A stretch of 28,953 nucleotides of DNA from Patescibacteria group bacterium (lineage in GTDB: Bacteria; Patescibacteriota; Minisyncoccia; Portnoybacterales; UBA2143): NCBI GenBank assembly GCA_043814195.1, contig JBDRKH010000016.1, positions 1 to 28,953 of the forward strand, written 5' to 3'. Below, piece by piece: positions 26,412 to 27,479 of the stretch. The notes under the pieces are model-generated. The model was not told the origin of the DNA. It saw only the letters and a program-made list of their open reading frames with translations, and made no database searches. Numbering within the stretch: position 1 is the stretch's first letter; every line of letters starts with the position of its first letter. Position numbers and translations under genes: made by a program.

Positions 26412-27317
26412 TTATTTTTTTGTCAATCTAGAGAGATTGAGTTCTTCAAGAATATCGCTGGCTTGGTTAACTAATTTGGCTCCCATTTTGATTAGATCGT
26501 GAGGTCCTGAAGAATTAGTTGAGAGAATATGCCCGGGAATGGCAAAAACATCGCGGTTTTGTTCCAGGGCGTCGCGAGCGGTAATTAAAGCGCCGCTTTT
26601 AGAGGGCGCTTCAATCACTAAAACACCCAAGCTTAATCCGGCAATAATCCGATTGCGTTGAGGAAAATGCTGAGCTAGAGGCTGGGTCTCAATCGGGAAT
26701 TCGCTGATAACCGCTCCGTTTTCTGAAATTTCTTCAGCCAAGCTTCGATTAATCGGCGGATAAATGCTTTGTCTGTCTATGCCCGAACCAAGCACGGCAA
26801 TAGTCCGTCCTTTAACCTTAAGGGCTGATTGATGAGCTAAGGTATCAATCCCTTTAGCCAGACCGCTGACAATGGTCAGACCAGCTTGAGCTAATTCAGC
26901 CGCAATTAAGAGAGTGACTTGCCGGCCATAAAGAGAAAGTTTTCTAGTGCCGACAATCCCTAAGCTGAATTCGTCTTCTGGTTTAAGTTCGCCCCGAAGA
27001 TAGAGCAGGGCCGGCGGAGAGTAGATTTCTTTGAGCAAGCGAGGATAATTTTCATCAAGAATCGTAATCATCTTGATTTTTTGTTTGGCTAATCTTTCCA
27101 TCTGGTAATCAGGATTAATCTGGGGCCGTCTCGCTTTGATTTGTTCAATCGCCGGTTGAGTTAAGCCAGCTTTTTGAAATTGATTGATTTCAGCTTGCCA
27201 AGCGGTTTTCAGAGATTTAAAATGCTCCAAAAGCTTTTTAAAGCCGATTGGACCGATGCCGCCAATCAAATTAAAGGCATTAAAATATTTGGCTTCGGGG
27301 TTGACAATTTCCGTCAT
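26412..27317 (-). CDS. dprA: DNA processing protein DprA (Smf)
   Basis: YPRLLKEIYSPP, IVGTRK, IVSGLAKGIDT, AVLGSGID, FPQRNRIIAGLS, SGALITA. Confidence 0.97.
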   Translation of the reverse strand: MTEIVNPEAKYFNAFNLIGGIGPIGFKKLLEHFKSLKTAWQAEINQFQKAGLTQPAIEQIKARRPQINPDYQMERLAKQKIKMITILDENYPRLLKEIYSPPALLYLRGELKPEDEFSLGIVGTRKLSLYGRQVTLLIAAELAQAGLTIVSGLAKGIDTLAHQSALKVKGRTIAVLGSGIDRQSIYPPINRSLAEEISENGAVISEFPIETQPLAQHFPQRNRIIAGLSLGVLVIEAPSKSGALITARDALEQNRDVFAIPGHILSTNSSGPHDLIKMGAKLVNQASDILEELNLSRLTKK

Positions 27318-27328
27318 CTTGATATAAT
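27301..27328 (+). promoter_or_regulatory. Consensus sigma70 promoter overlapping the dprA start, firing away from dprA
   Basis: TTGACA-16 nt-TATAAT with extended TG. Confidence 0.75.
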
Positions 27329-27337
27329 AATATTGAA

Positions 27338-27479
27338 CTTAATCTTTACCGGCCTGTCTAGCAGGTGGTTAATATCTAAACTTATCCCTCCTACAGGTTT
27401 AGTGAGACCAAAGCTTAGAGAGGATCTGCTTTTGCAAATTTTTCTCTAACGCCTGCTAGGCGGGCTGGTGAAGGTTAAG
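27338..27479 (+). ncRNA. Candidate structured RNA (long closing helix plus two internal hairpins), family unknown
   Basis: 27338-27367 pairs with 27450-27479: 30 contiguous pairs, 24 Watson-Crick and 6 G-U, with no other mismatch. Starts about 10 nt after the -10 box. Confidence 0.7.

Follow-up and report, generated by a model that had tools for sequence, protein, structure and literature searches.

A deeply conserved structured RNA gene of Patescibacteria with an anti-Shine-Dalgarno core in its hairpin loop

Introduction

Does the interval between dprA and pth in this patescibacterial genome hold an RNA gene of its own and, if so, what might that RNA do? From the letters of the window (the whole 28,953-nt stretch of DNA analysed here), the earlier note had proposed an unannotated structured RNA at this place, either a new ncRNA or a structured leader, transcribed from a consensus promoter and divergent from dprA. 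Patescibacteria (CPR) account for a large share of bacterial diversity, and our literature search found no publication describing such a regulatory or structured RNA, or the usage of Shine-Dalgarno (SD) sequences, in this group. We analysed the locus in the window's own genome, in its family and order, and in samples of its class and phylum. We find a new structured sRNA gene that is deeply conserved and whose family is absent from Rfam 15; this result is firm. Judging from the sequence of its hairpin loop, the RNA probably acts on translation start.

Results

A structured RNA is encoded on the + strand

The features of the locus are collected in Table 1. The central helix, which the earlier note had described as 30 bp consisting of only Watson-Crick and G-U pairs, was confirmed in full: 24 Watson-Crick and six G-U pairs, with no mismatch, join 27338-27367 to 27450-27479, and the hairpins A and B that it was said to enclose are both present in the MFE structure. 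The extra pairs claimed beyond this helix did not hold: they join the 3' flank to 27331-27335, which precedes the expected transcription start, and homologues do not keep them. The uppermost P1 pair competes with the 4-bp base of P2, and this base covaries.

Table 1. Positions of the RNA gene, its structural parts and the neighbouring signals and ORFs in the window.
Feature	Position	Strand	Remarks
Sigma-70-type promoter	27301..27328	+	-35 TTGACA 27301-27306, -10 TATAAT 27323-27328; spacer 16 nt; TG at 27320-27321; 12/12 consensus
dprA start codon	27315-27317	-	CAT on +; inside promoter spacer
Expected transcription start	~27335	+	
RNA gene	27336..27481	+	Three-way junction of P1, P2 and P3; 146 nt, delimited by covariance models
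P1 5' strand	27338..27366	+	Long closing helix; pairs with 27451..27479
P1 inner 5' box	~27352-27366	+	GCCUGUCUAGCAGGU; pyrimidine-rich, sequence-conserved
P1 3' strand	27451..27479	+	Inner part GCCUGCUAGGCGGGC; purine-rich, conserved, recurrent G-U wobbles
P2 (hairpin A)	27367..27409	+	4-bp base, asymmetric internal loop, 8-bp stem, 11-nt loop
P2 base	27367-27370 / 27406-27409	+	
P2 stem	27376-27383 / 27395-27402	+	
P2 apical loop	27384..27394	+	AUCCCUCCUAC; CCCUCCU at 27386-27392; unpaired in MFE
P3 (hairpin B)	27415..27449	+	Optional arm; apex UGCUUUUGCA
Two strong-SD small membrane-protein ORFs	27502..27836	+	Same orientation as the RNA
39-aa ORF	27520-27639	+	
64-aa two-TM ORF	27642-27836	+	
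Intrinsic terminator	27848..27891	+	GUCGUC...GGCGGC stem with G-U pairs, U run; overlaps pth 3' end

The two strands behave differently. On the + strand, positions 27330-27490 fold with an MFE of -73.2 kcal/mol (z -8.86), which none of 200 shuffles equals, while the - strand of the same interval reaches -51.2 kcal/mol (z -5.05). Covariance model (CM) scores at the locus amount to 145 bits (R1) and 137.5 bits (R2) on the + strand and to 25.9-30.8 bits on the - strand. The alignment of 43 homologues contains 347 G-U versus 44 A-C cells. Because G-U cells outnumber A-C cells and the CM scores are higher on the + strand, the molecule under selection is a + strand RNA, in agreement with what the earlier note had inferred from the six wobbles of the helix. 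The same asymmetry rules out a DNA-level palindrome. A repeat or mobile element is likewise rejected, as the RNA is single-copy in its own genome (present once in an assembly of 472 kb in 69 contigs, 94.6% complete).

The RNA is conserved across classes with covarying structure

BLAST identified copies with 74-78% identity in six genomes of the same family, and three successive covariance models extended the range beyond BLAST. Within the family, the RNA is present in 27 of 36 genomes and 19 of 22 genera; within the order, in 44 of 59 genomes. It was further found in 24 of 151 class-sample genomes and, with other classes included, in 21 of 151 phylum-sample genomes. All these genome counts are minimum values, given strict filters and divergent sequences. 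Each RNA-positive genome has a single sense CM match, and one genome carries two head-to-tail copies (a tandem duplicate). The carriers are bacteria with tiny genomes, and we place them in the Patescibacteria (CPR) on the strength of the 472-kb genome size and the groundwater origin of the runs.

In the 43-sequence alignment, which is model-fitted and thereby favours the structure, all 55 modelled pairs covary and 92% of the cells are paired, compared with 37-48% in controls in which the partners were slid by one to three columns; none of 500 shuffles reaches the observed values. P1 accounts for 28 of the modelled pairs, all of them with compensatory changes and with 94% of the cells paired. 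Independently, MAFFT/RNAalifold on seven sequences recovered 16 compensatory pairs. The pairing is preserved in homologues, every modelled pair having compensatory changes. Taken with the missing Rfam match (see below), this bears out the earlier reading as a new ncRNA, and we regard the identity of the element as a conserved ncRNA gene as close to certain.

Homologues range in length from 99 to 217 nt around a constant core of P1 (28-30 bp) and P2, the latter being the only arm found in every homologue, forms of ~100 nt included. The helices of P2 (helices 2-4 of the alignment) all covary. P3 covaries where present (helices 5-6); it is missing in five family members (L027, L029, L031, L033 and L034) and enlarged or replaced in three others (L026, L028 and L032). 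Two parts are conserved in sequence. The CCCUCCU motif occupies the P2 loop in 43 of the 43 aligned homologues across the phylum sample, and the inner 10-15 bp of P1 combine a pyrimidine-rich 5' strand (CCUGCCUAG, CCUAUCUGU) with a purine-rich 3' strand (CUAGGYAGG, GCAGGUAGG), with recurrent wobbles, whereas the outer half of P1 varies freely.

The RNA is distinct from known housekeeping RNAs

Rfam 15 gave no match at gathering score over the window and none at E<=10 around the locus, RF01820 and RF00001 included; a permissive scan of the locus returned only chance-level matches (snoR160, patAB, drum). In favour of a divergent form of a known housekeeping RNA (SRP/4.5S, 6S or 5S), the window's genome has no Rfam match for SRP RNA, 6S or 5S, and the new RNA is single-copy and rod-like. 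The earlier note had missed the expected SRP motifs in the RNA and had called it shorter and more branched than typical 6S RNA, and tests on models, on partner proteins and on the relatives' own genes were all negative for these identities.

For SRP (4.5S) RNA, the models RF00169 and RF01854 remained unmatched in the window's genome, in 36 family genomes and in 121 phylum-sample genomes. Neither Ffh nor FtsY was found in the window's genome, where searches for the SRP54-type GTPase (PF00448), for the M domain, by tblastn with E. coli Ffh and for a DTAGR signature in any ORF were negative; among other genomes, searches detected the Ffh M domain (PF02978) in none of 61 relatives and none of 101 phylum-sample genomes, and the PF00448 GTPase domain in one of these 101. 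For 6S RNA, RF00013 has no match in the window, at the locus or in the whole genome at E<=1, and the fold lacks a large central bubble, its near-perfect 28-bp helix leading into a three-way junction whose strands are 0-5 nt long. In addition, one relative (G040) carries a separate, bona fide 6S RNA (52-bit RF00013 match, C1:126974-127144) 15 kb away from its copy of the new RNA (C1:111773-111913). As to 5S rRNA, RF00001 is unmatched at the locus and a canonical 5S is encoded elsewhere in five of five RNA-positive relatives. With the loss of the RNA from some genera, its single copy and the asymmetry between G-U and A-C cells also speaking against it, we give almost no credence to a divergent housekeeping RNA or a mere DNA palindrome or repeat.

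RNA and downstream ORFs are separable modules of one transcription unit

The consensus promoter that the earlier note had laid over the dprA start codon matches at 12 of 12 positions and has the TG. In nearly all family loci, the arrangement TTGACA-N-TGnTATAAT recurs immediately before the RNA, and the position of the dprA start codon within the promoter spacer is conserved in the family. The promoter persists in relatives without the RNA; some genera lost the RNA yet kept the promoter. These losses and the tandem duplicate in one genome fit a regulatory RNA; the RNA is not essential.

Within the window, no terminator separates the RNA from the two small ORFs, neither of which (39 aa and 64 aa) has a Pfam match. 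The transcription unit likely ends at the intrinsic terminator listed in Table 1, which folds with -14.4 kcal/mol (z -5.3) on the + strand and with -2.6 kcal/mol (z -0.4) on the - strand. Relatives without the ORFs have the same terminator directly after the RNA. A two-TM protein of 57-84 aa with a strong SD follows the RNA in ~19 of 27 family loci, three family loci additionally having a one-TM ORF of 39-46 aa. The two-TM protein is absent in eight of the 27, where the terminator directly follows the RNA, and several distant relatives have textbook terminators immediately after the RNA. Conversely, in three family genomes without a CM match the same promoter drives the small ORF directly; in a fourth such genome the interval is masked by N.

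Because the RNA occurs without the ORF and the ORF without the RNA across genomes, the two are separable modules under one promoter and terminator, and the small ORFs are accessory cargo of the RNA's transcription unit, separate from the RNA itself. An obligate type I toxin leader is rejected on this ground. A riboswitch or cis leader was also rejected as the identity of the RNA, given the loci lacking the ORF, the three genomes with promoter and ORF alone, and the 28-30 stable pairs of P1. The "structured leader" alternative of the earlier note is thus only partly right: in this genome the RNA is the 5' part of a unit predicted to run through the ORFs to the terminator, but relatives have RNA and ORF apart. 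As RNase III is encoded in the window's genome, the 28-30-bp helix P1 is a plausible processing site for this enzyme.

Genomic setting and expression

According to Pfam, the neighbouring genes in the window encode DprA, Pth and an LCP protein. Gene order is invariant in the family: topA and dprA (leftward), the RNA (rightward), then pth and LCP (leftward). In more distant loci dprA is often replaced, whereas pth still converges on the RNA in 23 of 25 loci at class level and in 11 of 11 at phylum level. The divergent position relative to dprA that the earlier note had emphasized therefore holds locally and in the order, and the phylum-wide linkage is with pth. In each carrier a single copy occupies a constant place, where it converges with pth and, within this order, diverges from dprA. 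In 17 of 19 RNA-positive genomes of other classes, the gene for the ribosomal protein bS21 and the RNA share a strand and are 3-9 kb apart, and the same proximity was seen in all seven regions inspected (five of the window's own class, two of other classes).

Among RNA sequencing runs, none was shown to contain the stretch. Three metatranscriptomes were compared with it. The only match was a 154-nt contig from a relative that is ~90% identical to 27353-27466; it stems from a metatranscriptome of the same study as the best-matching DNA run. In that metatranscriptome, dprA is not covered by any contig and pth only by a 45-nt piece at its start. The contig is weak support for the RNA gene.

The invariant loop carries the anti-SD core in a genome that rarely uses SD sites

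CCUCCU, contained in the loop motif CCCUCCU, is the core of the 16S anti-Shine-Dalgarno sequence. The 16S of the window's genome is not assembled; the comparison uses the 3' end of relatives' 16S (GGAUCACCUCCUUUCU; the tail is also given as GAUCACCUCCUUUCU), with which the loop shares the core while its flanks differ. The motif is unpaired in both the MFE and the consensus structure, and only the inner P1 box loosely resembles an SD:anti-SD duplex.

SD sites are rare in the window's genome. Of 385 ORFs (>=150 aa), 2.9% have GGAGG 5-17 nt before their first ATG, or 3.9% if any candidate start is allowed, compared with 0.3% in control windows, and SD 4-mers are not enriched upstream of starts relative to control windows; these figures rest on crude start assignment. 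Among the genes preceded by AAGGAGG, small or accessory ones predominate (both ORFs described here, a pilin, lipoproteins, membrane proteins), and the bS21 orthologue also belongs to this set. That strong SDs are scarce and sit on such genes and on the bS21 gene is an observation on the side of SD pairing.

Other observations on the loop point the other way. Its complementarity to typical SD sites extends over 6-7 nt only, with flanks of CCUCCU that differ from the 16S tail; for the actual SDs here (AAGGAGGUGAU), the fit extends over 9-12 nt with 16S but over 5-6 nt with the loop. When the genome was searched for the complement of the loop, one extended match of 11 nt came up, before a gene for a 58-aa zinc-ribbon protein. 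This match is not conserved, and the gene was rejected as a conserved target, being present in only five of 36 family genomes, two of which lack an RNA match. A loop that is invariant throughout the phylum, together with a P1 box of conserved sequence, is also more typical of protein- or ribosome-binding RNAs. Separately, an rRNA target was rejected, as the complement of the loop is absent from the mature 16S and 23S of two relatives.

The bS21 orthologue of the window's genome is a divergent basic protein of 81 aa with a weak Pfam S21 match (E = 0.013); it is 35-75% identical to the relatives' proteins, of which the copy in G075 sits where Pfam S21 matches. The bS21 gene has the best SD in these genomes. 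We nevertheless rejected its mRNA as a target to which the loop is tuned, as its SD (GGAGGUGAU, extending as GGAGGUGA(U)) fits 16S and not the loop.

Discussion

Proposed mechanism and alternatives

Taking the observations as a whole, the best explanation is that the sRNA of this separately promoted gene acts through an SD-pairing loop, a reading to which we accord somewhat less than an even chance; the SD-pairing mechanism of the loop, which is suggested by base complementarity, is advanced by itself with slightly greater reserve. According to this proposal, the RNA would be transcribed from the consensus promoter, and P1 would lock both RNA ends together against exonucleases; cleavage of P1 by RNase III would detach the RNA from whatever ORFs follow. 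Copying the 16S anti-SD core, the unpaired CCCUCCU in the P2 loop would then pair in trans with the AGGAGG-type ribosome-binding sites of the minority of mRNAs that have strong SDs, and it could also pair with the SDs of the small membrane-protein cistrons on its own transcript. Such pairing would compete with 30S binding.

Alternatively, the RNA might be a protein decoy or scaffold, in which the loop, perhaps together with the P1 box, mimics the 16S tail or the SD:anti-SD duplex and binds a bS21-like factor. It would then adjust the number of 30S subunits able to use SD sites, with bS21 as the most plausible partner. This main rival, drawn by analogy with OLE RNA, is rather unlikely, yet it stays a serious one because the complementarity of the loop is short, its flanks are unlike 16S and the P1 box is conserved. 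Simple antisense action would need neither the invariance of CCCUCCU across classes nor the conservation of the inner P1 box, the P6 element of OLE RNA provides a precedent (PMC12054373), and the gene with the best SD, that of bS21, is a neighbour on the same strand in the 17 of 19 genomes and seven of seven regions mentioned above. On the other hand, the OLE mimic is a duplex whereas CCUCCU lies here in an open loop, the proximity of the RNA and rpsU may reflect a conserved gene block in which the genes between are on the other strand, and bS21 occurs in 124 of the 151 genomes sampled but the RNA in only 21 of 151, a comparison affected by limited CM sensitivity. Slightly more doubtful is a phylum-specific RNP RNA that would imitate the 16S 3' tail and capture bS21 or another anti-SD reader; if this were true, the RNA would set which ribosomes translate the small SD-dependent set (bS21, small membrane and surface proteins). 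The setting for such an RNP would be bacteria whose initiation has become largely independent of SDs and in which searches detected no SRP component.

Two further roles are less likely than SD pairing or a mimic of the 16S tail. As a cis leader or processing module of a small membrane-protein operon, the RNA would provide in P1 an RNase III site setting mRNA stability and in its loop a mask for the SD. The absence of a terminator between the RNA and the two strong-SD ORFs here, in a unit that ends at 27848-27891, and the shared promoter and two-TM ORF after the RNA in ~19 of 27 family loci fit such a module; the terminator that follows the RNA without any ORF in eight of the 27 family loci and at several distant loci, the at least three genomes with promoter and ORF without the RNA, the conservation of the RNA far beyond the ORF family, and a 28-30-bp helix that cannot switch make it improbable. 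Less probable still is antisense or transcriptional interference, by read-through colliding with pth or by a promoter that excludes dprA initiation. It would account for the convergent pth in nearly all loci across the phylum sample and for the promoter interdigitated with the dprA start codon, but leaves the covarying three-way junction and the invariant loop unexplained, and it sits poorly with + strand terminators before or at the pth stop and with the many distant loci in which dprA is not a neighbour.

The RNA is conserved across classes with unusually clean covariation, and it shows the ribosome's mRNA-docking sequence in genomes where that sequence is barely used, making it a concrete handle on how translation initiation is organized in reduced cells. 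Its small size (100-150 nt) suits direct biochemistry and structure work. At a minimum the family merits an Rfam entry, so that the intergenic region is no longer read as empty.

Comparison with known systems

RsaE/RoxS (Rfam RF01820) and the hairpins of S. aureus RNAIII are SD-targeting sRNAs with C-rich loops from Gram-positive bacteria. Like RNAs of the RsaE/RoxS type, the RNA described here exposes an unpaired C-rich motif complementary to G-rich ribosome-binding sites in a hairpin loop, and it has a gene and a promoter of its own and is conserved well beyond the genus. In contrast to them, it has no sequence or CM similarity to described families, carries one motif instead of several, is closed by a 28-30-bp helix leading to a three-way junction and keeps a fixed locus across phylum classes; moreover, its motif equals the core of the anti-SD, and its genome makes little use of SD sites.

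Type I toxin mRNA leaders, of which hok, tisB and aapA1 are examples, resemble the locus in the small hydrophobic ORF downstream, the highly structured 5' region and a CCUCC that could mask an SD. They differ in that the new RNA persists without the ORF and vice versa, and the downstream protein has two TM and 57-84 aa. Similar to 6S RNA (RF00013), the new RNA is rod-like and abundant-looking, has a strong promoter and would mimic a nucleic-acid ligand of a core machine; unlike 6S RNA, it is without a large central bubble and would mimic the 16S tail, not an open promoter.

The closest look-alike of the motif itself is found in OLE RNA, in whose P6 a CCUCCU mimic is paired to an SD-like strand and mutation of the mimic region abolishes bS21 binding (PMC12054373). 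Both RNAs share a CCUCCU identical to the core of the 16S tail, a helix of a pyrimidine and a purine strand with wobbles, and an implied link to translation initiation. OLE RNA, however, is ~600 nt long, occurs in Bacillota and keeps its mimic base-paired, whereas the patescibacterial RNA is 100-150 nt long and holds the motif in an open loop.

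Absence and duplication of the RNA in relatives

Three family members (G024, G035 and G013; loci L082, L083 and L084) do not carry the RNA, and all three retain the identical promoter with the dprA start codon in its spacer, which here drives the small ORF with two transmembrane segments directly. Either a clean loss removed the RNA module from these sites, or they never acquired it. The lack of a match in the related genome G007 is uninformative about absence, because a run of N, either masked sequence or a gap in the assembly, fills the dprA–pth interval at the expected position of the RNA (locus L081 on contig C48 of that genome). 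In G297 the RNA is present in two head-to-tail copies scoring 102 and 71 bits, each with a separate CCCUCCU loop, and these tandem RNAs are a sibling pair.

Coordinates of features at the RNA locus and in related regions
Feature	Sequence	Position	Strand
Stretch with TATTAT upstream of dprA	window	27318-27335	-
Direct repeat, copy 1	window	27702-27741	
Direct repeat, copy 2	window	27802-27841	
Tandem RNA copies	locus L045 (G297, contig C88)	1365-1643	
Probable bS21 gene	contig C48 of G000 (locus L086)	2642-2900 (343-600)	

Genes flanking the RNA

As dprA has no SD on its strand and is preceded by the hexamer TATTAT at -12 to -7 (numbered from the A of its ATG), its mRNA may be leaderless and be transcribed from a -10 element overlapping the -10 of the RNA promoter. 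Judging from the sequence, the promoters of dprA and of the RNA may thus be arranged back-to-back and interdigitated.

A 40-nt direct repeat (85% identity, spacing 100 nt) involves the 64-aa ORF, whose conserved GGIETESAGLFEG motif is encoded by the first copy. The 3' end of the ORF looks recently remodelled, because the second copy is out of frame and supplies the basic C-terminus together with the stop codon.

Gene content of the assembly and the signal recognition particle

Two similar RNase III genes of 230 aa (contigs C38 and C59) and three near-identical ribulose-phosphate-epimerase-like genes (C12, C25 and C65) each occupy a short contig of their own in the window's assembly, G000, which suggests strain heterogeneity or redundancy in this MAG (estimated contamination 2.65%).

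SRP RNA (RF00169) was found in none of 36 family genomes and none of 121 phylum-sample genomes, and the Ffh M domain in none of 61 relatives and none of 101 phylum-sample genomes; an SRP54-type GTPase domain gave a weak match in one of these 101. HMM, tblastn and DTAGR motif searches found neither Ffh nor FtsY in G000, and the SRP searches were positive in 13–14 of 14 control genomes. Unless this is a tool artefact, the SRP pathway is missing from the entire phylum sample, and our literature search found no publication stating its absence in this phylum.

The SD of the probable bS21 gene

The strongest SD in G000, AAAAGGAGGUGAU, lies upstream of a gene whose product is probably bS21 and is complementary over 12 nt to the 16S tail of relatives; GGAGG accompanies less than 4% of the long ORFs in this genome. 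Across the phylum sample, the position of this probable bS21 gene relative to the RNA is maintained, on the same strand and 3–9 kb away (relatives' loci L095–L101). Autoregulation of bS21 has been described in Bacteroidota, and the strong SD on the probable bS21 gene is reminiscent of that system.
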